Shown here piece after piece: positions 205 through 58,783 of a stretch of DNA of 64,000 nucleotides (the stretch's first letter is position 1; the number at the start of each line of letters is the position of its first letter). The stretch comes from an uncultured Gemmatimonadales bacterium (GTDB taxonomy: Bacteria; Gemmatimonadota; Gemmatimonadetes; Gemmatimonadales; GWC2-71-9), in contig CAWCVB010000005.1 in the NCBI GenBank assembly GCA_963798915.1, forward strand, positions 441,291-505,290. Direction: 5' to 3'. The translations under genes and the position numbers were made by a program. The notes under the pieces were generated by a model, which ran no database searches, was not told the DNA's origin, and saw only the letters and a program-made list of their open reading frames with translations.

Positions 205-2466
<2,262 letters not shown>

Positions 2467-2470
<4 letters not shown>

Positions 2471-3531
2471 GCCGCCACCTTGCCACCTCGTACATGCCAC
2501 ACCGGAAGGGCCAATCCCGCCGGCAGGTGGTCCTGCCGGGGTGCGGTCAGGAACACCTGACGCTCGGCGCCCGCGAGCAGCCGGGCCGCGAGTCGCTCCT
2601 GGCGTTCGGCATCCAGCTCGGCGAAGATGTCATCCAAGGCGAGCGCCGGCTCGGTTCCGCGGTCCTCCGCCAGCGTCCGCAGCTCGAGCAGCCGGAGCGC
2701 AATGGCCGAGGTTCGATGCTGGCCGGTGCTGCCGAAGGTGCGCTGCTCTCGCCCATCGAGCACGAGCCGCAGGTCGTCGCGGTGGGGACCGAGCCCGGTT
2801 GCGGCATGGGCCAGATCCCGCGCGAGGTGCTCCTCGAGCAGCACTGCCCAGGCGTCGACCTCCGCCAGCTCGGGGTGGCCACGGTAGAGCAGCCGGGTGT
2901 CGGCCCGCTCTCCCAACGCTTCCATCTCCTCGACGAAGGCCGGCTGCGCCCGCTCCACCCAGGCAAGGCGTGCACGGATCACCGCAGCCCCTGCTCGCGC
3001 CAACGGCTGGTTGAAGGCCGTTGCCAGATCGCCGCGCCCCAGCCGCAGCGCGCCATTGCGCTGTGCCAGCGCGCTTCGATAGCGCGAGAGGGCGCCGAGG
3101 TACGCGCTGTCAGCCAGTGCGAGCAGCCGGTCGAGATAGAGCCGGCGCCCGGCAGCCGGGCCGGAGGCAAGGGCGACATCCCCTGGCAGGAAGGCGACGG
3201 CCAGCCAGGAGCCGATGGCATCGGACAGGCGACCTGCCTCATTCCCGCCGACGGCGATGCGCTTGCGTCGCTCCGCCGTGTTCCACTGGGCGGCCACTTC
3301 CCGGCCATGCCCCCACGTGACCACCCGGAAGCCCGTGCCCGAGAAGCGCACCAGTTCAGCATCGGCCGCTCCGCGGATCGATCGGCAGAGCACCGTGTAA
3401 CAGAGTGCCTCGAGCAGGTTGGACTTGCCCTGGCCGTTGTCGCCAAGCAGCAGCATGCCGGCGGCCGGCACAGCCAGATCCAGATCCTCGAGGTTCCTGA
3501 ATCCGCGAGCGACCAGTCGGTCGAGACGCAC
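2467..3531 (-). CDS. recF: DNA replication/repair protein RecF
   Basis: GFRNL, Walker A GDNGQGKSN, GPHRDDL, GSTGQHR, LDDIFAELD. Confidence 0.95.
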
Positions 3532-3960
3532 TACTCGACAATGAGCGTGCGCGCAGCCGTGTCGCCGCGCACGCCGCCGATATCTGTGGCAAACACCAGC
3601 ACGGTCAGGGTGTCGCCCTTGTGGTTCGACGTCGAGATGGGAAGGATGAATCGGAGTGTATCCGTCGGCTCCTCGGGCGTGAGTGGCGGGAAGCGCTCGC
3701 TACCACCCACGACCAGCACGTACACAGAGTCCACACCGTCTTCGTCGATTGACCGGCCGGCCACCAGCGCCATCGGCCCCGTCGGGCACGCGGGCCAATC
3801 CTGCCTCCGGCGAATCGATAAATGTCACCGGGCCCTTGGCCGTCGACTCGGGACCGAAGATGGGGCGCGCCCGGTCGTTACAGCCCACCGCCATCAGCAG
3901 GACGCCTGCGCAGAGCGGCGCCAGGCCGGCCCTCAAACGGCAAATTATGGGGTGCGACAT
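3531..3960 (-). CDS. Hypothetical lipoprotein, split by a probable 1-nt homopolymer indel at 3777-3780
   Basis: Lipobox-type signal (LLMAVGC) in ORF 3700-3960. Removing one base of the C4 run joins it to ORF 3531-3773 (...VPDG-PMALVAGRSIDEDGVDSVY...), whose stop overlaps the recF start. Confidence 0.6.
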
Positions 3961-4008
3961 CCATGGAAATATAGCCGCTACGCCCCGCGAAAACGAGGGT
4001 CGCGCAGC

Positions 4009-4791
4009 CTATTTCCGATGGAATTCAGGAGCTCGCCGCGCCAGGAACGCGGCGGTCCCTTCGGCCATTTCGGGAGAGGTCGAGAGCAGTCCAAAAACCG
4101 CGGCCTCCTGAGCCAGCGCGGGTTCCAGCGCGAGGTCACTGCTTCCATCGACCAGCGCAAGGCAGGCACGGACCGCCAGCGGGCCATTGGCAAGCATCTG
4201 CCGCAGCAACGCGTCGGCTTCGGCAAGCAGCGTGTCAGCGGGCACCACGCGATTCACCAGCCCGATGCGGCAGGCTTCGGCGGCATCGATCATTGCGCCA
4301 GTCAGGAGCAGCTCAAGCGCGCGACCGCGGCCCACGAGCCGGGGAAGCCGAACGGTCGCACCGTAGCCCGGAGTGATGCCGAGCTTCACCTCCGGCTGGC
4401 CGAACCGGGCTGACGCCGACGCGATTCGCAGGTGGCAGCACATGGCCAGTTCACAACCGCCGCCAAGGGCAAAGCCGTTCACTGCGGCGATCACCGGCTT
4501 GCCCAGCGTTTCGATCTGGCGGAACACGGCCTGTCCCGTCCGTGCGCGTTGAGCACCATCCAGCGCGCCCTGTGCGGCGATTTCAGCGATGTCCGCGCCA
4601 GCGACAAATGCCTTGGGGCCCGCACCGGTGAGAATGACGCCCGCGACCTGCTCGTCGGCCGCGAGCCTGGTGGCCACTTCGCCCAGCTCGCGAATCACCG
4701 TGGCATTCAGGGCATTCAGCTTGTCGGGGCGATTGACGGTCACGGTGGCGACCCGCTCGTGGACGTCCAGGATCAAGGTTTCGAAGGACAT
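4009..4791 (-). CDS. Enoyl-CoA hydratase/crotonase family protein
   Basis: NRPDKLNAL, AFVAGADI, VNGFALGGGCELA, FGQPEVKLG. Confidence 0.93.
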   Translation of the reverse strand: MSFETLILDVHERVATVTVNRPDKLNALNATVIRELGEVATRLAADEQVAGVILTGAGPKAFVAGADIAEIAAQGALDGAQRARTGQAVFRQIETLGKPVIAAVNGFALGGGCELAMCCHLRIASASARFGQPEVKLGITPGYGATVRLPRLVGRGRALELLLTGAMIDAAEACRIGLVNRVVPADTLLAEADALLRQMLANGPLAVRACLALVDGSSDLALEPALAQEAAVFGLLSTSPEMAEGTAAFLARRAPEFHRK

Positions 4792-4894
4792 GGCCAACTC
4801 GGCAGGTTGGAAGTGGTAGGTTGGTAGCTGGAAGATAGTTGCCAGACCCGCTAACGTGGCGATCTTGAAGGTTGATTCCCGCTTCCCACTGCTC

Positions 4895-6370
4895 ATGCCT
4901 TGCATCCTTGCGCTGGACCAGGGGACCACCGGCTCACACGCGCTCGTCCTCCACGACGACGGGCATGTGCTGGGCACCGGCTACCGTCCGATCACGCAGT
5001 TCTTTCCCGAGCCCGGATGGGTGGAGCATGATCCGGATGAGATCTTCCGGCTCACGGTGGAGGCGGCGCGCGACGCCCTGCGCGCAGCTGGCGAGCAACC
5101 GGACGCGATCGGTATCACCAACCAGCGCGAGACGATCGTTCTCTGGGACCGTCGCACCCTCGCTCCGGTTGCGCCGGCAATCGTCTGGCAGGACCGCCGC
5201 ACCGCGCCGCGCTGCCGGGAGCTGCAGCGGAATGGGCAGGAAGCGGTTCTGCGCGAGCGAACCGGGCTGGTCGCGGACCCGTATTTCAGCGCCACCAAGC
5301 TCGAATGGCTCCTGCGCCAGCCAGCGGTGCGCCAGCGGGCGGCGCATGGGGAGCTCGCCGCCGGCACGATCGACTCGTGGCTTGTCGCCCGGCTGACCGG
5401 CGGCCGCACGCATGTTACCGACCATACCAATGCGTCCCGCACACTGCTTTACGATCTCTCGACCCGCACCTGGGCCGATGAGCTGCTGGCAATGTTCGGC
5501 ATTCCGCGGGAGCTGCTGCCACGTATTGTCGCGTCCGGTAGTATCGTCGCCGAGACGGACGCGGCCTGGTTCGGGCGACCGATCCCCATCGCCGGCATGG
5601 CGGGCGACCAGCAGGCGTCGCTCTTCGGGCTCGGCTGCATGGCCACGGGCGAGGCCAAGAACACCTACGGGACGGGCGCGTTCCTGCTGGTCCACCAGGG
5701 CGACGTGCTCCCCGTGCCGCCGCAAGGCGTGCTGGCGACCGCCGCCTGCGGCGCACGGGGCGAGCCCGCCTATGCCCTTGAAGGTTCCATTCTGATCGCG
5801 GGCGCCGCCGTCCAGTGGCTGCGTGATCAGCTCGGCATCATCTCCACGGCGGGCGAAACGGAACGGCTGGCCCGCAGCGTGCCCGACACCGGTGGCGTGC
5901 ATTTCGTGCCCGCATTTGCCGGACTTGGCACACCCCACTGGGCGCCCGAGGCGCGCGGCATGATTACCGGCCTGACCCGCGGAACCAGCCGCGCACACAT
6001 CGCGCGGGCCGCGCTGGAGGCCATGGCCTTTGGCACGGCGGAGCTCTATCGGGCGATGGGTGCGACGTCGGGCCTCAAGGTGGACGGTGGGGCATCGGCC
6101 AATGACTGGCTCATGCAGTTTCAGGCGGACATCCTGGGGACTCCCGTGCAGCGGCCGGATGTGATCGAATCCACGGCGCTCGGCGCGGCCGGGCTGGCCG
6201 GCGTGACCGTCGGCATCTGGAAGAATGCAGAGGCCTTTCTTGCGGCACGATCGTTCACCGAATTTGTGCCCCGGATGTCCGCCGCGGAGCGCGCGCGCCA
6301 GCTCGCCGGATGGAGGCGTGCGGTGGCGGCAACGCTTGCATGGGCAACGCCCGATCAGGTCACGGAATAG
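4895..6370 (+). CDS. glpK: Glycerol kinase
   Basis: LALDQGTTGS, GITNQRET, WQDRRT, YFSATK, GDQQA, KNTYGTG, DGGA. Confidence 0.95.
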   Translation: MPCILALDQGTTGSHALVLHDDGHVLGTGYRPITQFFPEPGWVEHDPDEIFRLTVEAARDALRAAGEQPDAIGITNQRETIVLWDRRTLAPVAPAIVWQDRRTAPRCRELQRNGQEAVLRERTGLVADPYFSATKLEWLLRQPAVRQRAAHGELAAGTIDSWLVARLTGGRTHVTDHTNASRTLLYDLSTRTWADELLAMFGIPRELLPRIVASGSIVAETDAAWFGRPIPIAGMAGDQQASLFGLGCMATGEAKNTYGTGAFLLVHQGDVLPVPPQGVLATAACGARGEPAYALEGSILIAGAAVQWLRDQLGIISTAGETERLARSVPDTGGVHFVPAFAGLGTPHWAPEARGMITGLTRGTSRAHIARAALEAMAFGTAELYRAMGATSGLKVDGGASANDWLMQFQADILGTPVQRPDVIESTALGAAGLAGVTVGIWKNAEAFLAARSFTEFVPRMSAAERARQLAGWRRAVAATLAWATPDQVTE

Positions 6371-7802
6371 CAGCGCCGTGGCAGACGGTGCACATCTCCG
6401 GATTCTTCCTCCGAAGCCGCTCCGCATCGAAGCCGGGACCATGCGGATTGAAGCGGCGCCCGCCGTTGGCCGAATGACAGGTGAGGCAGTCGCGCTCGAC
6501 ATGACAGCTCACGCAAGTCTCCAGGGACTGCCGGGCCGCCTTGCCGTGCCCGAGGAGGAAGGTCGGGTTGGCATCGTGATAGTTGCCCCGCAGCGGGCCG
6601 CTGGAGCGAAGCCCCGCCTCGGCATGGCAGGTCATGCAGAATGAGGCCGTGTTGTGGCAGGCCGCGCAGTCGGACGCGCGCGCAAATGCCGCGGCCGGGT
6701 GACGAGTGAGGAAGCCGGCCGGGTGATACTCCTGCGCGGTGCCGGGTGTCGGCACGTGGCAGTAGAGACACTCGGTCCGGGCGTGACAGGTGGCGCAGGT
6801 GCGCGGGGCCGCGCGAGCGAACGCCGCATGATCCTCGGAAAAATCAGCGCCATGCGTGGCGGGGCGCCGCCGGGTGACGACGGCACCGGTGGCCCGTCCT
6901 GGACCGGCCACGGCCAGGCGCTTCACTGCGCCGGGTTCACTCCCGGCATGGCAAGTGAGGCAGCTCTCCCGTGTGTGGCAGGTGGCACAGGTTGACGCCG
7001 TGCTGAGGCCCCGGCCATGTGACTGCAGGAAACCGGATGACTGGTGTGATTCGGGCGCCGCGAGGGTCGCTGCGATCGCGGTGGATCGCGGGTCGGGCGC
7101 GAGCGCCTGGATCGCCGGTGTCTCGGGCGCGTCCACATGACACTGCAGGCAGAAATTCCGGGCGTGGCAAGTTGCGCACGACGCCGCGACACCGTGGGTA
7201 GCCCCCATCGTGGCCAGACGTCCATGCCCGCTGCTGCCGAAGCCGGCAACCTGGTGCGACGCTGGCTCCGGGAAGCGAGCGATGTCCTGCCTTGAGAGCC
7301 GGGTCGCTTGGGACAACGGCACGTGACAGGTGGCACACGCCGTGTCCGGTGCAGCGAAGTGGCCGCCGGTCACACCGTGACAGGAGAGGCAGGCGCCGCT
7401 AACGGCAAGCGACACCTGCATCCAGCCCTTGCCAGGGGGGATGTGACAGGCAGCGCAGCGTTGTGCTGAATCGACGGCGATTCCGCGGGAGCGACTGTAC
7501 TTCGCGGCGTGCGCGGTGTGCTGGAAGTCGAGGTTGGTGGCCGGCAGTTCGGTCGGAGGCGTCCAATCCACCCGGCGCTCCACGCTCCCGTCGTGGCAGA
7601 TGGTGCAGGCCACGCCTGCGGGATATGGCTGGCTGCCGGTAAGCACGCCGGCATGACAGCTGGTGCAGCTCGGGAACAACTTGGCATGCTGGTCATGGTC
7701 AAAGCGATCGGTCTGTCGGCCCAGGCGGGCGCCGCCCAATCCGATGGCCGTGAGCCCGACCAGCGCGAGCGCCAGCCGCAGATGAGTTCGGATCCAGGTC
7801 AT
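6360..7802 (-). CDS. Exported multiheme c-type cytochrome (16 CxxCH)
   Basis: N-terminal signal/anchor; 16 CxxCH counted by hand, ten of them in five paired repeats. Confidence 0.92.
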   Translation of the reverse strand: MTWIRTHLRLALALVGLTAIGLGGARLGRQTDRFDHDQHAKLFPSCTSCHAGVLTGSQPYPAGVACTICHDGSVERRVDWTPPTELPATNLDFQHTAHAAKYSRSRGIAVDSAQRCAACHIPPGKGWMQVSLAVSGACLSCHGVTGGHFAAPDTACATCHVPLSQATRLSRQDIARFPEPASHQVAGFGSSGHGRLATMGATHGVAASCATCHARNFCLQCHVDAPETPAIQALAPDPRSTAIAATLAAPESHQSSGFLQSHGRGLSTASTCATCHTRESCLTCHAGSEPGAVKRLAVAGPGRATGAVVTRRRPATHGADFSEDHAAFARAAPRTCATCHARTECLYCHVPTPGTAQEYHPAGFLTRHPAAAFARASDCAACHNTASFCMTCHAEAGLRSSGPLRGNYHDANPTFLLGHGKAARQSLETCVSCHVERDCLTCHSANGGRRFNPHGPGFDAERLRRKNPEMCTVCHGAAIP

Positions 7803-9298
7803 CGGCTGCGCTGCTCCGCGCCAGGCTTGCGCCGGCGCGCCGGGGGAAGCGGCGTCGTGCCGGCGCCACCGAAAAGCAGCGTAAGGCGGGCGTTGAGCCG
7901 AGTCTGGGTCCAGTCGAAGGCCGCGGCGTCCGGACGATCGCGGGTTTCCCAGTAACGCGCCACGCCGGCACCAGCCCGAATCCGGTCCGACGCATCCCAG
8001 TCCACCTCGAAGCCGACCGTGCTCACGGTTGCGTCGTCATACCGAAATTCCAGCGGTCGTTGAAGCGCGGCACCGTTGAGCTGAAATGAGAGCCGTGGAG
8101 CGGCGGTGTAGGTGACCGTGCCGTCGAGGCCTCGTGAGGCGGCGCCCGGCCCGAATTCGCGGTGCGCGCCAAGGTCGAACTGCCATTGCGGCGTGAGCCA
8201 GACCGATCCCCCTACAGTGGCGCGCCAGCCGGCGTCCTCGGCACGCACCAGCGGCGTCGACGCATCGCTGGCCTCAAACCAGTACCGCTCGCCCCGGGCG
8301 CGGAGCTCGATCCGGCGTCCAGGGCGTATCCAGACCGACCCGGCGATGCTGTTGAACGGCACCGGGCTGAACGCACCCCAGATGGTCCATAGATCGAAAT
8401 GCGGTCGGTAATGACGGGCGGCCAGCGCGACGGTCACCTGGGGACTGGCATAGCGCGCCTGGATGTCGGCGGTACCCCACAGGTTTGCCGCGATATCGTA
8501 CTCGCCTCCGCCGGCCAACGACATGTAACGGCCGACGCGAACGTCTCCCGAGAGTGCCATGCGCTCGGACACGAAGTAGTCGGAGCGTCCATCGAGCTCC
8601 CGCTGATATTCGAGGCGGAGATTCGTGCCGACGCCGCTGAAGCCGGCCGCCGCACCGTAAAGCCGGGTGCGCTGGTCTGGCCGGTACTCGTCGAGCGGGT
8701 TGAGGGCCGGGCTCGTGATCGGGAGCGCGGTGGCTCGTGCCAGGCCCCAGCCGGCGTAGGCTTCCGCCTCGACGCCGGATCTGCCCAGGCGGACTTTCGC
8801 CTGCGCACCATCGAACCCGGCGGCTCCGAGCCGCGTCAACATCGTCTGGCGCCCCACTCGCACCGTGACGGGCGTGGAAGCGTATTCCGCGTAGGCCTCG
8901 AGAAGTTGGGCCGACGGCTGCGTGCCAGGCCAGGCATTGCGGTCAGCCAAGTCAGTAAGCAGCCGGCCATCGAAATGCAGGCTGAGACGCGCCAGTCCAA
9001 GCCCCCAGACGGTCGCGACCGCTGATTGCGCGAATGGGGCGGCATGGACGACAGGGCCGGGCCGGAAGTAACGGCAGACACCGGCCGGATCACAGGACAC
9101 GGCAAAGCCAGCCTGGGTGACCGGGCCGCCGGTTGGTCCGGTCACGGTTTCCGCCTCCAGCACACTGTCTTCAACGACACCCCGGAAGTCCACCCGCTGT
9201 ATCCGGGAATCCAGGCGCAGGCTGTAGCCCTGGGCATGGAGTCCCGGTGCAACGCCGCCCAGTAGCACGGCGGCCACAGCCCATGCACGCACCCTCAT
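7799..9298 (-). CDS. Putative outer-membrane beta-barrel (porin partner of the cytochromes)
   Basis: Signal peptide ending LHA-Q; about 470 aa of alternating amphipathic, aromatic-rich strands; 'EAYAEY...VRVGRQ...GFDG' porin-like segment; lies between two multiheme genes with 4-nt overlaps. Confidence 0.75.
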   Translation of the reverse strand: MRVRAWAVAAVLLGGVAPGLHAQGYSLRLDSRIQRVDFRGVVEDSVLEAETVTGPTGGPVTQAGFAVSCDPAGVCRYFRPGPVVHAAPFAQSAVATVWGLGLARLSLHFDGRLLTDLADRNAWPGTQPSAQLLEAYAEYASTPVTVRVGRQTMLTRLGAAGFDGAQAKVRLGRSGVEAEAYAGWGLARATALPITSPALNPLDEYRPDQRTRLYGAAAGFSGVGTNLRLEYQRELDGRSDYFVSERMALSGDVRVGRYMSLAGGGEYDIAANLWGTADIQARYASPQVTVALAARHYRPHFDLWTIWGAFSPVPFNSIAGSVWIRPGRRIELRARGERYWFEASDASTPLVRAEDAGWRATVGGSVWLTPQWQFDLGAHREFGPGAASRGLDGTVTYTAAPRLSFQLNGAALQRPLEFRYDDATVSTVGFEVDWDASDRIRAGAGVARYWETRDRPDAAAFDWTQTRLNARLTLLFGGAGTTPLPPARRRKPGAEQRSR

Positions 9299-11304
9299 GG
9301 GCTGCGTTTTCCGGTGAGCGCCGGACGATACGCGTCGGGTGGCTCGAGCAGATGGCACGTCGTGCATTCACGCTCCGGGAAGTGGCTCACCTGCTCGGTG
9401 TGGCAGGTGAGGCACAGGCTCCGCGTGGGATGCAGTTGCGCCACCGTGCCTGGTGCATGGCACGCGTCACAGGCACGGTGCCCCTCGACGGGACGCGCAT
9501 GCGCCGGACGCACGCTCGCGCCGGCATGACAGGTGGAACAGTCGCGTTGCTGCGTGTGATGCGCTTCGTGGCAGTTGGTGCACGTGACCACGGCCGCGGC
9601 AGGCGCCATCGAGACCCGAGCGGTGTGACAGGTGGTGCACGTCACGCTGTCGTGGGCGCTATGCTGGAAGGCCGCTTCGCGGACGCGCGGGGTCCGGATC
9701 CCGACCTGGACGGAGAGCGATTCAGGGATGGACGGCGCCAGGTCGTCGGCACCATGACAGGTGCGGCACGTGTTGGTAGCGGGTGCTTGATGGTGGCAGA
9801 TCTGGCAGCCGCGTGGCGGCTGGAAGGTCAGGCCGCCGTGGCCGGTGCTGGTCGAATGGCAGGTGAGGCAGGGGAGAGCGTGGTGGCGCGCATGCGAGAA
9901 CGTGTCGGCGCGGACGGTGCCGGCGGGGAACAGCGATGGGGAGTCACGCGTCGAGAATCCATCGCCGGCCGGCCTGAGGCCGGCCACCAGCTCAGGCGGG
10001 ACTGTGGCGCCCATCGATACGCGCTGGAGCGCCTTGGTCGTATCGAACGCTTCGGGCGGCCGCAGTTTCCCCCCGGTGCGCTCACGCACGGCCTCGTGAC
10101 ACCCGGTGCAGTCGCTGGCGTCCACCCTGGCCTGGTGTGGCAGGTGACAGGTCTCGCATTGCGTGGCGACGCTCCGGTGGCGCAGCCCCGTGTGGAAGGG
10201 GAACTTCTTCCAGTCCGCGTGGCAGCCGGCCGAGGCACACGACTTGAGGGCCGCGCCAGGCGTAGTCTGGCGGTGGGGGTTGTGGCAGGTGCCACAGGTG
10301 CCGTTGTGCGGGTCGTTTGCCGGATCGAACTTGGCCGTGAGGGCAAGCATCTGGTGGCATGACTGGCACTGCTCCATGTGAGGCACCAGCGTTCCCACGG
10401 CTGAGTCTCGGGTGGCCAGCCGCGGGACTTCCCGCGTGAACTGATGGCAAACGGTACAGTGGATGGTGGCCTGATCCGCCATCTTGCCAAGCCGGATGTT
10501 GACGCTGTCGACCAGGTGGCATCCCTGCTGGGCGCAAGTGGCGTTCACCGGCCGGAACCGGTGCGCAGTCTGGGCATGGCAGGTCAGGCACTCCAACTTT
10601 CCCCGGAGAGAATCGCTCTCCAGGTGGGCGCGGTGGCCTGCCGTCGAAGCAATCTGCTGCCACGTCTCCTTGGCATCCCCCCGGACGTGGCATCGCTCGC
10701 AGACATCGCGCGGTACCTTGGCATGCGGGGGGATTTCCTTGTCGCGGCGCCCTGACATCCAGAAGATCAGCTTGACCGCTTCCTTGGTCGGATGCAGCGC
10801 GTGGCAAACGTGACAGCTGAGGGTGTCGTGCTTGCCCTCCACCCGGTGCACCAGGCTGTAGTAGCCGGTATCCGGCAGCACCCAGGCTTCGCCGCTGCCG
10901 ACAAAGATGTGGCAACCGTTGCAGAACCGGTTGTCCTTCTCGATGAACTGGTTGGTGCGATAGCCCATGCCGGCGACGAGCAGCAGTACCACGCCAGCGA
11001 GTCCTGCCATGGCCAGCTTGAGCCCGAGCGATCGCGAGCTGAACCAGGTGCCGATGCCCCGGCGCTGAAGCCAGAGCCACCGGAGGACGACCACCGCCAC
11101 GATGACGGCGAGAATGGCTCCACCCCACATCAACCAGGGCGGCCGCTGGAAGATCCACTGGACGACGGTGATGACCGGGTCATCCAGTCGAGGGTGCGTG
11201 AGGATGGAGTCGAGCGCCACCTGCTGGCCAGCTCCCACAACACTGGAGTCCTGGCCAGGGGCCAGGACTCCAGTGAAGACTGCACGAATGGCGGCGCCGT
11301 ACAC
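9295..11304 (-). CDS. Membrane-anchored multiheme cytochrome: NapC/NirT-like N-terminus plus extension (18 CxxCH + 2 CX4CH)
   Basis: Two TM helices, then FCNGCH/CHVCH/CERCH/CLTCH..AH in a NapC/NirT-like layout, then 16 further motifs including CAQQGCH and CASAGCH. GTG start uncertain. Confidence 0.88.
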   Translation of the reverse strand: MYGAAIRAVFTGVLAPGQDSSVVGAGQQVALDSILTHPRLDDPVITVVQWIFQRPPWLMWGGAILAVIVAVVVLRWLWLQRRGIGTWFSSRSLGLKLAMAGLAGVVLLLVAGMGYRTNQFIEKDNRFCNGCHIFVGSGEAWVLPDTGYYSLVHRVEGKHDTLSCHVCHALHPTKEAVKLIFWMSGRRDKEIPPHAKVPRDVCERCHVRGDAKETWQQIASTAGHRAHLESDSLRGKLECLTCHAQTAHRFRPVNATCAQQGCHLVDSVNIRLGKMADQATIHCTVCHQFTREVPRLATRDSAVGTLVPHMEQCQSCHQMLALTAKFDPANDPHNGTCGTCHNPHRQTTPGAALKSCASAGCHADWKKFPFHTGLRHRSVATQCETCHLPHQARVDASDCTGCHEAVRERTGGKLRPPEAFDTTKALQRVSMGATVPPELVAGLRPAGDGFSTRDSPSLFPAGTVRADTFSHARHHALPCLTCHSTSTGHGGLTFQPPRGCQICHHQAPATNTCRTCHGADDLAPSIPESLSVQVGIRTPRVREAAFQHSAHDSVTCTTCHTARVSMAPAAAVVTCTNCHEAHHTQQRDCSTCHAGASVRPAHARPVEGHRACDACHAPGTVAQLHPTRSLCLTCHTEQVSHFPERECTTCHLLEPPDAYRPALTGKRSP

Positions 11305-11318
11305 CGTGCCGACCAGGT

Positions 11319-12866
11319 CTAACGCATGGTGAGCGAACGGCGCGCCGGCTGCAGGCTCGAAGCCGGGAGCGGCTCGTCGAGCAAGCGCCGTGCAACGGCC
11401 GGCGGCGCGGGCAACGACGGATAGTTGGCCTGCATGTCCTTGATGCTTGCGCGCAGCAGCGCCTCGGCCAGGAAGGGATTGTGGACGCCAAGGCTCTTGT
11501 CGCCGTTGGCGTACAGTCCCTCGCCCACCAGGCGGGCGTTGAACTCGGCTCCTTCAGCAGACGTGATGATCGAGTCTCCGGCAAACTCTTCCGGATTGCT
11601 GCCCTTGATCGTCGGCAGATAGCCGGTGTCGGTGCCGGGATCAATGGCCTCGTTGCCATCCACATCCGTCCAGAGCACATCCGCCAGCGTCTTGAGCCGG
11701 TCACGCAGGTTGACGAGCAGCGACGCCGCCACGTCCTCCGATGCATGGCACCCGGAGTTGCTGCACGCGGCAAAGGTGCGCGCGCTGGTGGTGTAGCTGC
11801 AGCTGTTGTCGGCCACCGGCTTCCCGGTCCCATCAAGGCAGGGGATGGGCCGGAACAGGTGGCCGGTCGAGAAGATCTGCTCGCCAGTCAGGGTGTCGGT
11901 ATGCTGATAGGCATTGACGTGGCATCCGGCGCAGAGCCGCGGATTCCGCTCGGACGCATGGGACGTGAAGATCCGGGACGTGTCATATGCAAACCCGGCA
12001 GGGCGGTAGCCAGCGGTACCGAGAAGTACGGCGCCCTGCGGCGCGTGTGGCGTCGTTCCATGGCTCCCGCCGGCAGGTTCGGAGCGCCGGATGTGGCAGC
12101 GCATGCACAGGTTCAGCTCGGGATCCGGATTGGAGATCGAGAACCGGAGCTGCGACTCGTTGGGCGACCCATGCGGATCATGGCAGACTGCACACGTGGT
12201 GGCCATGGGTGTCGCGTCGTCATGTTCCACAAAGTTGGCATCCGCGTTCCAGGCTCGCAGGACCCCCTTGCCCTCGTGGCAGCTCTGGCATTCGGCGCGA
12301 CTCGCCGGCGAGGCAACCACCTGCGCATGGGCGGATTGTTTCCACTCATCGGCGAAGGGATTGTGGCCGCCCGAGTGGCACGCGGCGCAACTGGCAGCAG
12401 AATCATCCAGCGTCATGTGCGCCAACGGCACGTTACCGGGCAGGTCGGGGGCCTGCACATGCTCCAGCCCAGGGCCATGGCAGTTTTCGCACTGGACGTT
12501 ATGGTAGGCCGAATCCTCGACCAGATTCCAGCCGGCCGGTCCGGTGAGGCCGTTACCCTTCTCGTTCAGGGTATGGCAGCCAAAGCAGCTGGGCTGCGAA
12601 TGACCCGAGTTGATCAGCGTGGCATAGGCCTCGGCGTGCGCTGAGGTCTTCCAGTCCTTCCCGTGCTCGACATGGCAATTGCCACACGTCGTCTGGTTGC
12701 TGGCGACGTCGAACAGGCCAAGGAAGCCATTGATGCTGTCAGGTGGCGGGTTGAACGGCGGGCGGTCCCGGAAGACGATCTTGTCGGAACCGCAGCCTAC
12801 GAGCAAGGCGAGGGCCGTCAGGGTGAAACAGAGGAAGCTGGCACGGCGTCGGCTTGGCGCAGTCAT
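11319..12866 (-). CDS. Multiheme c-type cytochrome lipoprotein (8 CxxCH + 1 CX4CH)
   Basis: Lipobox LLVG-C; CGNCH, CFGCH, CENCH, CAACH, CQSCH, CAVCH, CMRCH, CAGCH, CSNSGCH; C-terminal DKSLGVHNP helical tail as in c552/OmcB-like multihemes. Confidence 0.9.
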   Translation of the reverse strand: MTAPSRRRASFLCFTLTALALLVGCGSDKIVFRDRPPFNPPPDSINGFLGLFDVASNQTTCGNCHVEHGKDWKTSAHAEAYATLINSGHSQPSCFGCHTLNEKGNGLTGPAGWNLVEDSAYHNVQCENCHGPGLEHVQAPDLPGNVPLAHMTLDDSAASCAACHSGGHNPFADEWKQSAHAQVVASPASRAECQSCHEGKGVLRAWNADANFVEHDDATPMATTCAVCHDPHGSPNESQLRFSISNPDPELNLCMRCHIRRSEPAGGSHGTTPHAPQGAVLLGTAGYRPAGFAYDTSRIFTSHASERNPRLCAGCHVNAYQHTDTLTGEQIFSTGHLFRPIPCLDGTGKPVADNSCSYTTSARTFAACSNSGCHASEDVAASLLVNLRDRLKTLADVLWTDVDGNEAIDPGTDTGYLPTIKGSNPEEFAGDSIITSAEGAEFNARLVGEGLYANGDKSLGVHNPFLAEALLRASIKDMQANYPSLPAPPAVARRLLDEPLPASSLQPARRSLTMR

Positions 12867-13046
12867 ATTTGACCCTTGAGAGGGAATCTGCATACAATAC
12901 CTACGGACATCTGCGGAGTTTCGCAAGCGCTGTGGGTATCCCATGAGCGGATCGTCACATATTCTTCATGAAATCTGCGCTTCCCGGCCCCACTCTTCAT
13001 TGTTACAACCACACGGTCGTCGTCTCGTTATTCTAGGGGCTCTGTG

Positions 13047-13731
13047 ATGAATCCACGGTTCTGCTCGGCGTGCGGGAGTCAGCTTCGGCCCGGCGGCCGC
13101 TTCTGCGGCGCATGCGGAGCGCCAGCCGATGGCGTCCCGGTGACGGCCTCAGGCGGAATGCGCCGCGTCGCCGGTCATCCTGGGTGCACTGGTGGTGCTG
13201 ACCGGGGTGGTGCTGCTGGCTCGGTCCCAGCGGCGGCCAGCGGAGCCGGACTCGTCGTTGGCATCGGCCGCCGGCGCCGGGGCGGTCATGCCACCTGACA
13301 TCAGTGGCATGTCGCCGCGCGAACGGTTTGACCGACTGTACAACCGCAGCATGACGGCAGCCGAAGCGGGCGATGCATCCACCCTGTCCACTTTTGCACC
13401 AATGGCCTTGCTGGCGTATGCCCAGCTCGACACCGTGGATGCCGATGCGCGCTATCATGCGGCCATGCTCCGGCTGCACACCGGAGACGTGCCCGGCGCT
13501 GCGGCGCTGGCCGATTCGATTCTGGCTGCAACGCCGGGCCACCTCTTCGGATACGTGATCCAGTTGACCGTGGCGCGCTGGCGGAAGGATACCGCCGCCG
13601 CCGCCGCCGCCCAGCGTGCCTTTGCGGCCCACTACGACGCCGAACTCCAGGCGGGCCGACCGGAGTACGCCGAGCACCGGACCATACTGGATGACACCCG
13701 CCGTGGCGCCTCGGCCACCGTATCGAACTGA
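13047..13731 (+). CDS. Zinc-ribbon + TM + TPR-like protein (CcmI/CycH-like), frameshifted near 13145-13170
   Basis: FCSACG..FCGACG ribbon in one frame; TM (PVILGALVVLTGVVLLA) and helical repeats in the next frame; first gene of the ccm operon. Confidence 0.6.
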
Positions 13732-13809
13732 CGGGCCGGCGTCCATGCTGCTATGTTGCACGTGATTGCCCGGACGACGGGCATGACTGCCTCCCGGAGA
13801 TAGGTCGAC

Positions 13810-14238
13810 ATGAAAGCCGGAACCAAATTCCTGGTCGGGGCTGCGGTGATCGTCGCCGCGGTCAGCTGGCTCATCGTGGCTGGCGTGCGCGAGACCGGTG
13901 TCTACTACCTCACGCCCACTGAGCTGGCTCAACGGGCCTCGGTGGACTCGAGCTACTTCGGTCTTGGTGTACGGGTCGGCGGCGCCAAGGTCGTGCCGGG
14001 CTCCGTGACCCGGAACGTCGCGTCGCAGGACATCGACTTCCGCATTTCGGACGGCCGTCAACAGTACCCCGTGCACTATCACGGGATCGTACCCGACACC
14101 TTCACGGGTGCCGACGACATCGAGGTCATCGTTGATGGAAGCCTGGGGCATGATGGGGTCATACGCGCCACCGAAGTGCTGGCGAAATGCGGGTCGCGCT
14201 ACGAGGCGGCGGCCGAGGACGCGCGCCGCCAGGCCTGA
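13810..14238 (+). CDS. ccmE: Heme chaperone CcmE, CxxxY variant
   Basis: YYLTPTE, VRVGG.VVPGS, YHGIVPDTF, LAKCGSRY (Cys in place of the canonical His). Confidence 0.93.
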   Translation: MKAGTKFLVGAAVIVAAVSWLIVAGVRETGVYYLTPTELAQRASVDSSYFGLGVRVGGAKVVPGSVTRNVASQDIDFRISDGRQQYPVHYHGIVPDTFTGADDIEVIVDGSLGHDGVIRATEVLAKCGSRYEAAAEDARRQA

Positions 14239-14244
14239 CGCACA

Positions 14245-16287
14245 ATGACCTTTCTCGGACAGTTCGCCCTCTGGACGGCGTTCCTGGTTGGTCTCTGGGG
14301 CGCCGTCGTGTCATTCTCCGGGCGCTGGCGCGAGCGGCCCGAGCTGGCGCGCAGCGTGCGCCGCTCGGTGTTCATGGTGTTCGCGGCCCTGGCCGTGGCG
14401 TCGCTGTGCCTCTGGAAGGGCCTGCTCGCGCACGATTTCAACATCGAGTACGTCTGGTCCTACACCTCGCGCAACCTGCCGACCTACTTTGTGGTGTCCG
14501 CGTTCTGGGCGGGGCAGAAGGGATCGCTGCTCTTCTGGGCCGTGGTGCTCTCCACCTTCGCAGCACTCGCGCAATTGCTGACGGCGCGCCGGCATGCGCA
14601 CCTCCTCCCATACGTGGCCGGCGTTACCAACTCGGTGGTGGCGTTCTTCGTGAGCGTCATGATCTTCGCTGCCAATCCCTTCAGCCGCCTGGACTTCACC
14701 CCGCTCGACGGTCACGGCCTGAATCCCCAGCTCCAGAACGTGGGCATGGTGATCCATCCGCCGATGCTCTACCTGGGCTACATCAGTGTCACGATTCCGT
14801 TTGCCTTTGCGGTGGCCGCGCTGCTCTCGCGCCGAATTGATTCGGGCTGGGTGGTCGCGATTCGCAAGTGGACCCTCGTGTCCTGGCTGTTCCTCTCGAT
14901 CGGCATCACGCTGGGGATGTGGTGGGCCTACGTTGAACTCGGCTGGGGCGGCTACTGGGCGTGGGATCCGGTCGAGAATGCCAGCTTCCTGCCCTGGCTC
15001 ACGATGACGGCCTTTTTGCATTCGGTGATGATTCAGGAAAAGCGCGGGATGCTGAAGCGCTGGAACCTTGGCCTCGTGGTGGGCTCGTTCCTGCTGAGCA
15101 TCTTCGGCACGTTCATCACCCGCTCGGGTGTCATTGCCAGCGTGCACAGTTTCACCCAATCCAACGTGGGCTATTTCTTCCTGGGTTTCCTGGCAATCGC
15201 GGGCGCGTTCTCGTACACGCTGCTGTACACCAGGTGGCCGTCGCTGGAACCCGACAGTCAACTGGAGAGCATGCTGAGCCGGGAGGCCGCCTTTCTCTTC
15301 AATAATCTGGTGCTAGTCGGGATCGCGTTCTCCGTCCTCTGGGGCACGCTCTTCCCGATTCTCTCGGAGTTGGTGCGAAACACCAAGATCACGGTCGGTC
15401 CGCCCTTCTTCAACAAGGTAAACATCCCGCTCGGGCTGCTGTTGCTGGCGCTGACCGGCATCGGGCCCCTCATCGCCTGGCGCCGGGCATCCCGCGCCAA
15501 CCTCCGGCGCCAGTTCACGGTGCCGCTGGGCGCGGGGCTTGGCACGGGCCTGGTGCTGCTCATTGCGGGCATGCGAGACCCGTACCCGATCATGGCCCTG
15601 GCCCTGGGCGGTTTCGTCACCGGCACGATCGGACAGGAGTTCTTCCGGGGGGTGCGTGCCCGGCGGCGGATGCACGGTGAGGGCGTGGTCGGAGCGCTGT
15701 TCCACCTGATTGCACGTAATCGGCGCCGCTACGGTGGCTACATCGTGCACGTGGCGATCGTCATCTACTTCGTCGCCTTTACCGGGATGGCGTTCAAGCG
15801 CGAGCGCGAAGCAACCTTGAAGCCGGGCCAGAGCATCCAGCTTGCCAGCCCCTTCGGCCATAACTACACGCTGACGCATGTGGGAGTCTCGCAATACAAG
15901 GCCTTGAACCGGTTTGTGACGGCCGCGAGCGTGCGCGTGAGCCGGGATGGCAAGGACCTCGGCATCATGACCTCCGAGAAGCGCCAGCATTTCACGGTGG
16001 AGAACGGCCAGGAAGTGGCCTCCTTCGAGCCGAGCACGGAGGTGGCAATCCGCAGCGACCTGCGCGAAGACCTGTATATCGTGTTTGCGGGCGCCGTCGA
16101 TGGCACCGAAGAGGCGGTCTACCGCTTCACCATCAATCCGCTGGTCTGGTGGGTCTGGTACGGAGGCGTCCTGCTTGCGATTGGCGGCCTGATCACGATG
16201 TGGCCGGGAGAGCCGCCGGGCACGACGCCCACACGCACGCAGGCAGGTTACACCGTGACGCTGGAAGGAGCTGGTGCCAGTGCCTGA
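14245..16287 (+). CDS. ccmF: Cytochrome c heme lyase CcmF
   Basis: GLNPQLQ, IHPPMLYLGY, WWAYVELGWGGYWAWDPVENAS, TRSGV.SVHSF. Confidence 0.97.
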   Translation: MTFLGQFALWTAFLVGLWGAVVSFSGRWRERPELARSVRRSVFMVFAALAVASLCLWKGLLAHDFNIEYVWSYTSRNLPTYFVVSAFWAGQKGSLLFWAVVLSTFAALAQLLTARRHAHLLPYVAGVTNSVVAFFVSVMIFAANPFSRLDFTPLDGHGLNPQLQNVGMVIHPPMLYLGYISVTIPFAFAVAALLSRRIDSGWVVAIRKWTLVSWLFLSIGITLGMWWAYVELGWGGYWAWDPVENASFLPWLTMTAFLHSVMIQEKRGMLKRWNLGLVVGSFLLSIFGTFITRSGVIASVHSFTQSNVGYFFLGFLAIAGAFSYTLLYTRWPSLEPDSQLESMLSREAAFLFNNLVLVGIAFSVLWGTLFPILSELVRNTKITVGPPFFNKVNIPLGLLLLALTGIGPLIAWRRASRANLRRQFTVPLGAGLGTGLVLLIAGMRDPYPIMALALGGFVTGTIGQEFFRGVRARRRMHGEGVVGALFHLIARNRRRYGGYIVHVAIVIYFVAFTGMAFKREREATLKPGQSIQLASPFGHNYTLTHVGVSQYKALNRFVTAASVRVSRDGKDLGIMTSEKRQHFTVENGQEVASFEPSTEVAIRSDLREDLYIVFAGAVDGTEEAVYRFTINPLVWWVWYGGVLLAIGGLITMWPGEPPGTTPTRTQAGYTVTLEGAGASA

Positions 16288-16882
16288 GCTGGACGCAACG
16301 ATGACCCGCCGCGGTTTGCTGGTCGGACTCCTCACGACCGGTGGCGCTGCCATGCTGGGGGCGCAGACCCAGTCCCAGGGTGACAGCCTCGCGGGTGGCG
16401 GCTCCATTGGCACCCTCGGGGCGCCGGGCCTGGCCGGGCGGCCCATGGCCCCGACCACCGCGGCTGACAACGACCTTGCCATTCAGGCGCTCGAAAAGCG
16501 GCTGCGCTGCTCCTGCGGATGCGGACTCGACATCTACACCTGCCGCACGACTGATTTCACCTGCACCTACTCACCGCAGCTCCATCGCGAGATCATGGAG
16601 TTCTGGAACAACGGCCAGTCAGCCGACCAGATCATCGCAGCGTTTGTCCAGGAGTATGGCGAGAAGGCACTGATGGCGCCGCCGCCCCGCGGCTTCAATC
16701 TGGCCGGATATCTGGTCCCGGGCATTCTCATTCTCATGCTGGGTGCCGTGCTCGCGTGGGTGCTGTTGCGCCGGCGGGCGCTGGTGGCGCCCGAGGGCGT
16801 GGCGGAACCACGGGCGATCGATGCCTCCGAAGCCGAGCTGGCAGAATTGAAGCGCGCCATCTCCGACGCGGATGCGGGATGA
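16280..16882 (+). CDS. ccmH: CcmH/NrfF-family maturation protein
   Basis: LRCSCGC, I...FV.EYG..AL..PP, C-terminal TM; follows ccmF; RBS GAAGGAG 9 nt before the GTG. Confidence 0.85.
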   Translation: MPELDATMTRRGLLVGLLTTGGAAMLGAQTQSQGDSLAGGGSIGTLGAPGLAGRPMAPTTAADNDLAIQALEKRLRCSCGCGLDIYTCRTTDFTCTYSPQLHREIMEFWNNGQSADQIIAAFVQEYGEKALMAPPPRGFNLAGYLVPGILILMLGAVLAWVLLRRRALVAPEGVAEPRAIDASEAELAELKRAISDADAG

Positions 16883-17364
16883 TCTGGGAACTGATCGGTG
16901 CACTGGCGCTGGGAGCCGCCGCCGTCTGGTTTGTACTTGCTCCGGTGGGCCAGCCACTTGCGCCCGAACGCGCCCGGCCTGCGGATCCCTTTGACGTAGA
17001 CGAAACCCCACGCTCGCGCGCTGTCGAGGCGTTGCGCGAAATCGAGTTTGATCGCGCCACCGGCAAGCTGTCGGACGCAGACTACGCCGCGCTCAAGTCC
17101 CGCTATACCGGCCTCGCGGTGCAGGCGATGCGACAGGAACGTGCGGCTGCGCCGGACGATGCCGACCTCGAGGCAATGATTGCCGCTCGACGAGGGCAGG
17201 CGTCCAGCGCCTGCGAGACCTGTGGGCCTCGCCCGGAGCCCGATGCGGTGTTCTGTTCGACCTGCGGCGGCCGGCTCGCGACCGGCCGCCTGTGCATGTC
17301 GTGCGCCGCCCCGGTGCCCGCTGACGGCGTATTCTGCGAGCGTTGTGGAGCCCGCGCCGCCTAG
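16879..17364 (+). CDS. CcmI-N-like membrane protein with double zinc ribbon
   Basis: TM, ALREIEFDRATGKLSDADY, then four CxxC pairs (CETC, CSTC, CMSC, CERC). Confidence 0.75.
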   Translation: MIWELIGALALGAAAVWFVLAPVGQPLAPERARPADPFDVDETPRSRAVEALREIEFDRATGKLSDADYAALKSRYTGLAVQAMRQERAAAPDDADLEAMIAARRGQASSACETCGPRPEPDAVFCSTCGGRLATGRLCMSCAAPVPADGVFCERCGARAA

Positions 17365-17365
17365 T

Positions 17366-17959
17366 CTACATCCGAATCAGCACTCCCATTTCCATCCGCA
17401 CCCAGGCCATGGCCGTTCGCCGGTATCCCTCGGCCAGGTCGTCACCGCTGAACACGCTCTGCGAGATGCCTGACGTCAGCCGGTTCTCGAATCGGAGCGG
17501 CCCCGTGCCGAAGCGCAGGGCGATGCCGGCGCCAGCGCCCAGACGGGTTCGTCGGCTTGCACTGCTCAACGTCCAGATGTCACCGCGGACTGCGAGGTCC
17601 AGCAGGAGCGTGGCCCCGCCGGTGCGGTGTACCGGATGCGCCAGCGACAGCACCACGCCGGTGCGCGAAAACGGCACTGCAGAGAGCTGAACAGCCGATG
17701 CGGAATCCGACGCCCGGAGAGCCGAGGGCTGCACTTCCACGGCGAGACCAAACTCAAGGCTGCCGGCACTGCGACGCACCCCCACGTCCGCACCCAGCCC
17801 TGGGCCAGGTCCAAAGCTGGTGCCGTCACGGTGTGCAGCCGGACTGAACCAGGTCTGACCGATGGCGCCCGTGGTCCACCAGCCGTGCTCCTGGGCCCTG
17901 CCTGCGCTCGGCAGGGCCAGCAGGAGTACGGCGACCGGTGCGATGGTGACCCGGTTCAT
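17366..17959 (-). CDS. Small exported beta-strand-rich protein (putative OM beta-barrel)
   Basis: Signal peptide ending GRA-Q; about 8 amphipathic strands; 4-nt overlap with the upstream lipoprotein gene. Confidence 0.55.
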   Translation of the reverse strand: MNRVTIAPVAVLLLALPSAGRAQEHGWWTTGAIGQTWFSPAAHRDGTSFGPGPGLGADVGVRRSAGSLEFGLAVEVQPSALRASDSASAVQLSAVPFSRTGVVLSLAHPVHRTGGATLLLDLAVRGDIWTLSSASRRTRLGAGAGIALRFGTGPLRFENRLTSGISQSVFSGDDLAEGYRRTAMAWVRMEMGVLIRM

Positions 17960-29599: not shown

Positions 29600-29974
29600 A
29601 TGGCGGATGACCAGGATCGCGGCGCTTTCACCATGCTCTGGATCGTCTCGGTACTGCTCTCCATCGGCATGGGGTTCATGTGCCTGGTCGCTCTGAGCGA
29701 AAATCAGGAAGTCGCGGCGCTGTTCGGGTTGGGCGGTTTTGGTGTTGGCGGCTTGCTCGCTACCACCTACCAGCTCACACGCAACCGGCGTCGTTCGCGG
29801 CCATCGGACGAGGCCCTCGAGCCACTGGTGGAGCGACTGCAGATGCTCGAGCAGGACCAGCTACGGATGGCCGAACTTGAAGAGCGGGTAGATTTCGCCG
29901 AACGGATGCTGGCCAAAGCCGAGGAGCATCAGCCCGCGGTGCGCTCAGGCGAGCGGGAACCACCCCTCACATGA
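29600..29974 (+). CDS. Array member 6
   Basis: Two hydrophobic segments, ELEERVDFAERML. Confidence 0.85.
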   Translation: MADDQDRGAFTMLWIVSVLLSIGMGFMCLVALSENQEVAALFGLGGFGVGGLLATTYQLTRNRRRSRPSDEALEPLVERLQMLEQDQLRMAELEERVDFAERMLAKAEEHQPAVRSGEREPPLT

Positions 29975-30722: not shown

Positions 30723-30757
30723 CCGGCACGAGCGACGACTTACTCACGGAGCACCAC

Positions 30758-31153: not shown

Positions 31154-31162
31154 GAGACGACG

Positions 31163-56704: not shown

Positions 56705-56751
56705 ATCCCACGGGCCCGTTCCTGACCAGCGCCGACGCGCCGGAGCCAGTC

Positions 56752-57768: not shown

Positions 57769-57988
57769 CGTGCGATAGTTGATCGCAACCTCGCTCGCCC
57801 GACGCGCCTCACTGGCGACGCGCGAGATTCGCTGCGCGTCGCCAGCAATCTGCCCCTGCATCTCCCAGAGCACCGCACCCATATCAACCAGTTACGGGCC
57901 CTCTGGCCGGACCGCTCAGCAAACGCGGGACGGTCGTCCGTGTAATGGGAAGAGCGAGGTTCAGGACCACTGTCTCGGGAGGCGCGAC

Positions 57989-58729: not shown

Positions 58730-58783
58730 CTGATCCAGTTGCCAGGTTTTCTGACCACCCTTCCATTCCTACGGAGGATTGCC

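Follow-up and report, generated by a model that had tools for sequence, protein, structure and literature searches.

Does an uncultured bacterium of the Gemmatimonadales carry an electrical connection from its quinone pool to the cell exterior? The question is raised by a 64,000-nucleotide stretch of its genome, referred to here as the window (assembly GCA_963798915.1, contig CAWCVB010000005.1, forward-strand positions 441,291 to 505,290), in which four consecutive genes, named A to D below, encode three multiheme cytochromes and a candidate barrel. Respiration of minerals, humics and electrodes is open to bacteria that have porin-cytochrome conduits. The operon described here is real and conserved, and it probably encodes a functional conduit of this kind. 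The route that we consider probable is one in which electrons pass from menaquinol to B, from B to D within the barrel C, from there to A and finally to an extracellular acceptor.

Four adjacent genes with 45 heme motifs

The genes are the following, listed from A to D.

11319 to 12866, minus strand: gene A, nine-heme lipoprotein (515 aa; 8 CxxCH and 1 Cx4CH; lipobox Cys25)
9295 to 11304, minus strand: gene B, 20-heme inner-membrane cytochrome (669 aa; 18 CxxCH and 2 Cx4CH)
7799 to 9298, minus strand: gene C, predicted outer-membrane beta-barrel (499 aa; zero heme motifs)
6360 to 7802, minus strand: gene D, exported 16-heme cytochrome (480 aa; 16 CxxCH; a single N-terminal hydrophobic segment)

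An earlier note on this DNA had described four tightly packed, co-directional genes with 9, 20, 0 and 16 hemes, and these coordinates bear it out: the four open reading frames (ORFs) all lie on the minus strand with these motif counts, B and C as well as C and D overlap in an ATGA, and A and B are separated by 14 nt. B lacks an ATG and its start, GTG at 11304, is uncertain. The motifs comprise 42 CxxCH and 3 Cx4CH, the total of 45 being reached only when the latter are included. The Cx4CH motifs are conserved, as 139 of the 146 rows of the A family have the 8+1 pattern and most full-length B homologs the 18+2 pattern. As a control for chance occurrence, a six-frame scan of the window yielded just two other stop-to-stop segments of more than 60 aa with CxxCH, one motif each.

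The barrel protein C

The genes and motifs are read directly from the DNA; the folds and the C-D complex described from here on are predictions. C was modelled with AlphaFold2 from 148 sequences (pLDDT 91.4, pTM 0.85), and 22 barrel strands were counted from the DSSP string of the model. The barrel begins at mature residue 2, so that C would have no plug. An alternation scan of the sequence recovered just 11 strand runs, and the strand count thus depends on the model. Whether the 7799-9298 product is an outer-membrane barrel had been set beforehand as a test that could refute a conduit; it models as a plug-free barrel of 22 strands, and the conduit was not refuted. Its backbone diameter would be about 40 Å, compared with about 47 Å for 26 strands (simple geometry with assumed shear numbers). 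By precedent this is not too narrow for a cytochrome, a doubt also voiced in advance, because 18-22 strands is also the prediction for the porins of Pcc systems (PMC4245776).

No Pfam or NCBIfam model matched C at E 0.01, and its family profile found no related barrel among the PDB sequences, the Mtr complex included. At E 0.001 or better C is matched by 339 cluster representatives, and a search of the ESM Atlas returned unnamed Gemmatimonadota clusters only. Eleven barrel relatives compared with Pfam and ten with NCBIfam gave only weak sub-threshold matches (OMP_b-brl, LptD and others). Fold searches with C retrieved generic barrels of 22-24 strands at Z 16-18, none standing out; TonB-dependent receptors and ushers came first (Z 17-18) and MtrB followed at Z 16.5 (rmsd 4.4, 361 aligned). 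The fold searches thus support a barrel and assign no family, and novelty of the fold does not follow from them. A TonB-dependent receptor was ruled out, because the modelled C has no N-terminal plug and aligns solely to the barrel portions of these receptors.

The 16-heme cytochrome D is predicted inside the barrel

The earlier note had asked whether one of the cytochromes threads the barrel lumen. In the predicted complex D does so, with the following segment.

6381 to 6827, minus strand: segment of D with hemes 10-16, predicted in the barrel lumen (complex model)

C and D were folded together heme-free, and the complex obtained a score of 0.74, the best control 0.00. In the benchmark the mark for this score was reached by 116 of 157 solved pairs and by 2 of 215 mismatched pairs, counts that apply only roughly to C and D since self-made alignments were used as input. 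At least 68% of contacts were common to the runs, with a partner pLDDT of 74 or more. The model supports binding of D by C and stops short of showing it. In it D touches 21 of the 22 strands, at positions less hydrophobic than the others (0.36 versus 0.53), and the seven C-terminal hemes, 10-16, are within the contact zone in the lumen. Residues 437-439 of D contact the long loops of C, which places the C-terminal end of D at the loop side. The long loops of outer-membrane barrels are extracellular.

Two observations on the sequence agree with this placement. The lumen segment is the best conserved portion of D (0.73 versus 0.50-0.64 elsewhere). All 16 motifs are kept in 76 of 96 D homologs and 14 hemes are found in 16 of 96. 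In the related loci described below, all 13 fourteen-heme forms of D in L001-L080 lack hemes 8-9, outside the lumen segment; which repeat was lost is not certain, as D is repetitive, and the 13 may reflect a single event. One 13-heme form lacks hemes 14-16 and its locus looks frameshifted. With 30 aa per heme, 15 conserved non-motif His and a conserved Met128, D has, as far as its sequence tells, a wire-like heme density; MtrA has about 33 aa per heme (PMC5566968). A match of D to PF22113 (MtrC domain II/IV; 62 bits, residues 45-121) is probably motif-driven, and so is the short match, the only one, between the D profile and the N-terminal part of B. D is the predicted barrel-threading subunit.

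These results bear on a quite different explanation, in which C would serve as a common channel or transporter and the cytochromes would store electrons in the periplasm or act there as a sensor, with no wire across the membrane. Such an explanation would suit the ranking of TonB-dependent receptors and ushers above MtrB and the lack of a sequence link between C and any solved porin-cytochrome barrel. We find it hardly credible, as the model of C is plug-free and resembles the receptors in their barrel portion only, the lumen is occupied by D in a predicted complex for which the controls scored nil, and the adjacency of C and D is maintained across classes.

Lipoprotein A resembles surface reductases

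The lipobox pattern of A is present in 116 of 120 homologs. Its model (pLDDT 93.2) ends in C-terminal helices and has as closest folds OcwA (Z 17.3, rmsd 3.2, 331 aligned) and OmhA (Z 17.0, rmsd 5.4, 350 aligned), followed by NrfA (Z 13.6), octaheme nitrite reductase (Z ~13) and MccA and HAO (Z 8-9). Foldseek likewise ranked OcwA and OmhA first, and the profile comparison with these two gave E ~2e-13; the identity of A to them is ~20-24%. The model contains an NrfA-like heme core and a bundle of C-terminal helices, as in OcwA and OmhA. OcwA is a cell-surface terminal reductase (PMC6703420). By analogy, A would be a cell-surface terminal cytochrome.

The fold is common to A, OcwA (Thermincola potens, 6I5B) and OmhA (Carboxydothermus ferrireducens, 6QVM) over most of the length of A, and nine hemes and C-terminal helices are shared with OcwA. 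A differs in its setting, because OcwA and OmhA are cell-wall or S-layer proteins of Gram-positive thermophiles without a porin, whereas A is tied to an outer-membrane barrel. Surface reductases of this type have so far been solved only from Gram-positive cell walls. The catalytic CxxCK was found in none of the 146 rows of the A family, and A as an NrfA-type nitrite reductase was ruled out on this ground.

The DmsEF conduit feeds a surface DMSO reductase, and the C-D conduit might likewise feed a dedicated surface enzyme, A using an open heme to reduce a particular substrate, soluble or toxic, outside the cell (an N, S or Se oxyanion, or hydroxylamine). A does belong to the NrfA/HAO/MccA fold family, two A genes stand before one barrel in three related loci, which could mean different substrates, and a paralogous operon in the same genome adjoins napA. 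OcwA itself has five-coordinate hemes and a catalytic side activity (PMC6703420). Yet apart from the missing CxxCK, nine non-motif His are at least 96% conserved in the A family for nine hemes, and A contains no His-His dipeptide like those above the open hemes of OcwA (heme ligation is not readable from the heme-free model). Small anions, moreover, normally cross porins and need no conduit. Taken together, this makes a dedicated surface enzyme rather improbable.

The inner-membrane cytochrome B

B has two hydrophobic helices (residues 56-74 and 93-111) with a basic loop between them, and comprises a head that resembles NapC/NrfH, an N-terminal set of 11 hemes and, at the C-terminal side, a module of nine. 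The B family profile matches NrfH (2j7a) with E 2.2e-9 over the helix and the first two hemes. In NrfH the Met of a CxxCHxM motif ligates the heme beside the quinol pocket (10.1101/2023.05.03.539133). The corresponding position in the window is different.

10831 to 10923, minus strand: first heme motif of B, CxxCHxF followed by a ~14-residue insertion (alignment with homologs)

Met is present in 33 of 51 homologs, and Phe together with the ~14-residue insertion in 18 of 51. The Phe rows form one side of a 100/100 branch in a 51-row tree with midpoint root, and the Met and Phe groups are also unlike in the helix that comes after heme 2. In 28 further loci from other families and classes all 13 full-length B proteins have Met, so that Phe is probably derived. 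The cytochrome ImcH interacts with quinol although its heme 1 is modelled with His/Gln and not Met (10.1101/2023.05.03.539133); the B of the window may therefore act on quinol all the same. B would link the operon to the quinone pool, and quinol oxidation by this particular B, which we only infer, is the weakest link of this copy.

The operon among related genomes

Homologs of the operon were sought with C, and the best 80 of 98 confirmed loci were kept (L001-L080), many of them cut short; the 28 further loci were hand-picked among profile matches. The closest relatives are Gemmatimonadales, and Gemmatimonadota groups are named for 76 of the 80 kept loci. The same operon occurs in four records labelled Bacillota, Acidimicrobiaceae or Vicinamibacterales (L008, L034, L038 and L073). 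Three B proteins of these four are in the tree, nested among Gemmatimonadales rows, and misbinning is more likely than transfer.

D follows C directly in 76 of the 80 loci, and the remaining four end at most 27 nt from C. It also follows C in 27 of the 28 further loci, the exception being a truncated second copy. From the phylum 401 genomes were sampled, and the C profile has a match in 185 of them; for the same family the figure is 117 of 166 other genomes, for the next family 27 of 95. The A profile matches 178 of the 401. Both were found in 176 genomes, C only in nine, A only in two and neither in 214, counts that are not independent because the sampled genomes are related. Six of the nine C-only genomes are fragmented assemblies (130-360 contigs) and three are weak matches from other classes.

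B is more variable. The 28 further loci contain a full-length B in 13 cases and a 9+1-heme gene in two; it is absent between A and C in six (L081, L083, L086, L089, L096 and L108), and the other seven have different layouts or reach the contig edge. A is kept in the loci without B, which ties A to C-D and not to B. Three of the six, L081, L083 and L096, have two tandem A-type lipoprotein genes before the barrel and 16-heme genes, an arrangement that recalls MtrC plus OmcA. In 11 of the 80 loci the slot of B is occupied by genes for a Rieske protein, cytochrome b, a 9-heme protein, a NapC-type 21+1-heme protein, an 11-heme protein and cytochrome b561. These expanded operons (L032, at 1090-12894, and L027, L039, L041, L043, L046, L048, L049, L050, L058 and L069) have about 66 heme motifs, with A first and the barrel and 16-heme genes last, and two or three quinone interfaces are possible in them. 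A fixed four-gene unit was rejected since B varies among relatives. The core is barrel C plus 16-heme D, usually with A, and the 20-heme B is swappable. The slot of B usually holds a quinone-type module, either the CxxCHxM NapC-like head (33/51) or the Rieske/cytochrome b set (11/80), which supports a conduit.

Three loci from other classes encode a barrel of ~410 aa, a 14-heme D homolog and a Cx4CH-containing cytochrome, with no adjacent A. The short barrel aligns with C along its length (hhalign 99.5%, E 1.8e-22). In both of the two cases read among these three loci, the cytochrome after D has a lipoprotein-type N-terminus. The first extracellular loop of C (window 9043-9169, mature residues 22-63) is long and bears a hairpin in which two Cys (mature C47 and C53) are conserved as a pair. 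This hairpin is absent from the ~410-aa barrels, whose loci are without adjacent A. It might be a docking site for A.

The variation of the operon also bears on the side of the membrane at which A is found. If A were a periplasm-facing lipoprotein enzyme fed by B, C and D would make up a conduit of two parts, as in MtoAB, that can do without a cytochrome at the surface. The genome of the window (84.8% complete) yielded no clear GspD, the three other-class genomes have C and D and no A homolog, and in the model the seven lumen hemes of D reach the extracellular loops unaided. All this would fit a periplasmic A. The retention of A where B is absent would not, nor would the other multiheme protein that follows D in the three loci without adjacent A, matching the outer-cytochrome slot of the Ignavibacterium Pcc cluster. 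We regard a periplasmic A as very unlikely. The earlier note had named a periplasmic enzyme with its own catalytic site as an outcome that would speak against its proposal. The closest folds of A are cell-surface reductases and CxxCK is missing throughout the family, which favours the surface, and A may all the same have a catalytic site.

A second copy and the respiratory setting

The genome of the window contains a second copy of the operon on contig C3 (21325-33219; L109/L110). It has an A with 7+2 hemes, a stand-alone 9-heme gene, the barrel and the 16-heme gene, and of B just the C-terminal 9-heme module remains. It is divergent from a napA-like gene, genes for 5- and 4-heme cytochromes and DsrO/DsrP-like (NrfC/NrfD-type) genes. 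Without a NapC-like head, the second copy may draw its electrons from this napA/DsrO/DsrP-like module. Menaquinone genes are present in the phylum (PMC9426454), and these together with the location of the second copy were counted in favour of a conduit. Three heme-copper oxidases were found, and one petB. None of the Rieske, 9-heme, 21-heme, 11-heme and cytochrome b561 modules of the variant operons was found in this genome. A nosZ-like gene on contig C2 (424145-425953), which scores 362 bits with the TAT-type model and so falls short of that model's cut-off, is probably of clade II. The three oxidases, the nosZ-like gene and napA fit a facultative organism.

In such an organism electrons could also flow inwards, or both ways, from Fe(II), reduced humics or partner cells to the quinone pool and on to the respiration of oxygen, nitrate or N2O. 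The three oxidases and the nosZ-like gene would provide for this, and so would the Rieske, cytochrome b and cytochrome b561 genes within the expanded operons. The PCC3 and PCC4 clusters of Fe(II) oxidisers are accompanied by cytochrome-b-like inner-membrane proteins and Fe-S genes (PMC5566968), and NapC-type proteins have been proposed as quinone reductases in Sideroxydans (PMC6295460). However, the conduits of oxidisers (MtoAB, PioAB and PCC4) are described as having no extracellular cytochrome (PMC5566968), whereas of the 185 genomes with C all but nine have A as well. The closest folds of A are terminal reductases of iron reducers. Menaquinone, a low-potential quinone and the one that this phylum uses, would be an uphill target from Fe(II). 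Inward or two-way flow is therefore unlikely. A conduit of C and D across the outer membrane is common to outward flow, inward flow, a surface enzyme and a periplasmic A.

Several points weigh against outward flow from quinol to the cell surface as set out above. The C-D complex was folded heme-free from self-made alignments and may have passed by likeness to MtrAB. The NrfH match of the B family spans, as the profile alignment shows it, just ~63 columns, and PF03264 matches 8 of 51 B homologs but not the B of the window, which also lacks the CxxCHxM. In 6 of the 28 further loci no B stands between A and C, and the co-occurrence counts come from related genomes. By their number the His of OcwA would allow bis-His ligation throughout; two of the hemes are open all the same, and the protein reduces both nitrite and hydroxylamine (PMC6703420), so that the nine conserved distal His of A are compatible with catalysis. 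Three secretin-like loci in the genome (84.8% complete) are all below the GspD cut-off. Finally, oxygen respiration is possible with three heme-copper oxidases.

Outward flow would nevertheless proceed as follows. Menaquinol would deliver electrons to the NapC-like head of B, a step weakened here by the missing Met. These would move along the heme chain of B across the periplasm and be handed to hemes 1-9 of D. Hemes 10-16 of D would, according to the predicted complex, carry them through the barrel C. D would then reduce lipoprotein A, presumably located at the surface and in contact with D, and A would, when oxygen is low, pass electrons on to a putative acceptor such as humics, other cells or the oxides of Fe(III) or Mn(IV). 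The position of A at the surface, the outward direction of the flow and the substrate are all putative. The earlier claim of a single operon spanning the distance from quinol pool to exterior is supported by the predicted barrel and its threading, and is weaker for this copy, whose B belongs to the clade without the Met.

Relation to known conduits

Going by an indirect link, the operon is probably a member of the Pcc conduits, and it is best described as a variant of these, neither MtrCAB nor a separate kind. The Pcc systems (Geobacter OmbB-OmaB-OmcB, with Ignavibacterium album closest) likewise have adjacent genes for a porin and two cytochromes, a multiheme one in the periplasm and one at the outer membrane, and in them too the porin and the periplasmic cytochrome stay paired while the outer cytochrome is swapped. 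A 22-strand C next to D agrees with their description as a porin of 18-22 strands with a periplasmic multiheme. The periplasmic Pcc cytochromes have 5-14 hemes, a descriptive range (PMC4245776); D has 16, and 14 in 16 of the 96 homologs. The cluster of I. album consists of the porin IALB_1839, the 400-aa 14-heme IALB_1838 and the outer cytochrome IALB_1837 with atypical motifs (PMC4245776), and the loci of the distant C homologs share this layout of barrel, 14-heme protein and Cx4CH cytochrome, as compared by description. Look-alikes of the ~410-aa barrel in the Atlas come from Ignavibacteriota and Myxococcota (TM 0.89-0.91 or feature score 0.99) and also from Calditrichota and Zixibacteria. 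The operon departs from Pcc in its C barrel of ~480 aa with the extra loop-1 hairpin, in the OcwA/OmhA fold of its outer cytochrome and in the presence of a 20-heme NapC-headed protein within the operon.

The logic of a quinol dehydrogenase, a cytochrome in a barrel and a surface lipoprotein is that of MtrCAB with CymA (Shewanella; PDB 6R2Q) and of MtoAB/PioAB. MtrA has its C-terminal hemes at the outer mouth, and the predicted polarity of D agrees with this. MtrB has 26 strands in its crystal structure. It had been predicted to have 28 (PMC4245776). C differs in having 22 strands versus these 26-28 and no family match, D in having 16 hemes and not the ten of MtrA and DmsE and no NCBIfam match, and A in having nine hemes and not the ten of MtrC and OmcA and its best fold and profile matches in OcwA/OmhA. 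In contrast to CymA, the quinol module of B is fused to 16 further hemes. Membership of MtrCAB was rejected, as barrel family, decaheme D and decaheme A all failed to agree. Of the distinct conduit announced in the earlier note, the unlikeness to Mtr was upheld, and the operon is probably related to the Ignavibacterium-type Pcc.

B appears to share with NapC/NirT/NrfH and ImcH a transmembrane helix directly before the first hemes, and differs from NapC/NirT/NrfH in its 20 hemes versus 4-7 and, in the clade of the window, in the CxxCHxF with insertion. PCC3/PCC4 (PMC5566968) and EET1-4 from peat (10.64898/2026.05.27.727921) are likewise genome-predicted clusters of a porin with very heme-rich multiheme cytochromes, sometimes with their own inner-membrane module. 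Going by their descriptions, they belong to other phyla and differ in the number of hemes, which is 8-13 in the models of EET1-4. An extracellular cytochrome is lacking in PCC4, and the porins of PCC3 reach as many as 42 strands (PMC5566968). The five-helix HX13H inner-membrane protein of PCC3/PCC4 is not in the four-gene operon; B has two helices, and cytochrome b561 is found in the variant operon only.

Neighbouring genes and other features of the window

The operon is flanked by the housekeeping genes glpK, recF and gyrB and its G+C is similar to that of the remainder of the window. A consensus scan found one promoter-like site, on the plus strand, and terminators at chance level. Upstream lies a cytochrome c maturation cluster.

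13192 to 17364, plus strand: cytochrome c maturation cluster, divergent from the operon (Pfam and NCBIfam matches)
13192 to 13731, plus strand: TPR-like gene between the operon and ccmE, inside the maturation cluster
13810 to 14238, plus strand: ccmE (Pfam/NCBIfam)
14245 to 16287, plus strand: ccmF (Pfam/NCBIfam)
16274 to 16882, plus strand: ccmH (Pfam/NCBIfam)
within 13192 to 17364, plus strand: double zinc-ribbon gene, last in the maturation cluster (Pfam/NCBIfam)

The operon had been described as divergent from ccmE/F/H, which is correct for the orientation, with the amendment that the TPR-like gene intervenes before ccmE. This gene is found near the operon in several related loci and has a paralog on contig C2 of the same genome; it is possibly a CcmI-like maturation factor. 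ccmE or ccmF is in the same locus as the operon in 10 of the 80 related loci, many of which end early.

Elsewhere, a gene at 17959-19173 on the minus strand encodes a 405-aa protein that has a lipoprotein-like N-terminus and is matched by no Pfam or NCBIfam model; a small ORF of barrel-like character (17369-18157) comes after it. The region 29600-31927 (plus strand) is one run of three small unknown ORFs, a CesT_Tir_1-family gene and pspA. The region 53570-63983, which lies beyond a tuf-nusG-rplA-rpoBC block, holds a gene for a 1044-aa CHAT plus TPR protein, after which come seven ORFs without a Pfam match at E 1e-8, the G+C dropping to ~0.60 in the last 4 kb.

Implications for the Gemmatimonadota

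Gemmatimonadota are among the ten most abundant soil phyla and are described as mainly aerobic heterotrophs. A literature search that largely left out subscription papers found no description of this operon. The earlier note had called the lineage one not usually regarded as electroactive, which needs qualifying, since hints of iron cycling in Gemmatimonadota have been published: marine members were reported with three MtrABC operons and widespread Cyc2 and DFE_461-465 homologs (PMC11316326). The labels given in that study could partly be matches to cytochromes of the present operon type. Multiheme proteins were also noted in Gemmatimonadota from vents (PMC9769843). The available passages of PMC10581226 and PMC9426454 contain no occurrence of multiheme, porin or extracellular electron; Gemmatimonadota are not mentioned in the abstract, passages and section 9 of the peat preprint (10.64898/2026.05.27.727921); the text of PMC13264449 names no Gemmatimonadota PCC (Figure 6 being outside the comparison), and the passages and supplement of PMC11475568 contain no Gemmatimonad match. 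As no Pfam or NCBIfam model covers the barrel, annotation based on families misses the barrel.

The finding is of interest for the spread of the barrel in a major soil phylum (185 of 401 genomes) and for the combination of parts, in which the operon would link surface reductases of Gram-positive bacteria with the conduits of Gram-negative ones. It also offers a compact, testable design of a predicted barrel-cytochrome pair with natural wire lengths of 14, 16 and 18 hemes and swappable quinol modules. We suggest tentatively, and a little short of an even chance, that about half of the Gemmatimonadota are overlooked electroactive bacteria that respire iron oxides or humics in anoxic soil microsites through a wire from quinol to the surface. 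This wire would be made up of a 22-strand barrel that belongs to no named family, a core of 16 hemes, a reductase at the surface and inner-membrane modules that can be exchanged, the quinol site having been remodelled or lost in the CxxCHxF clade. If this is true, a large overlooked group of bacteria takes part in the redox cycling of iron and organic matter in soil.

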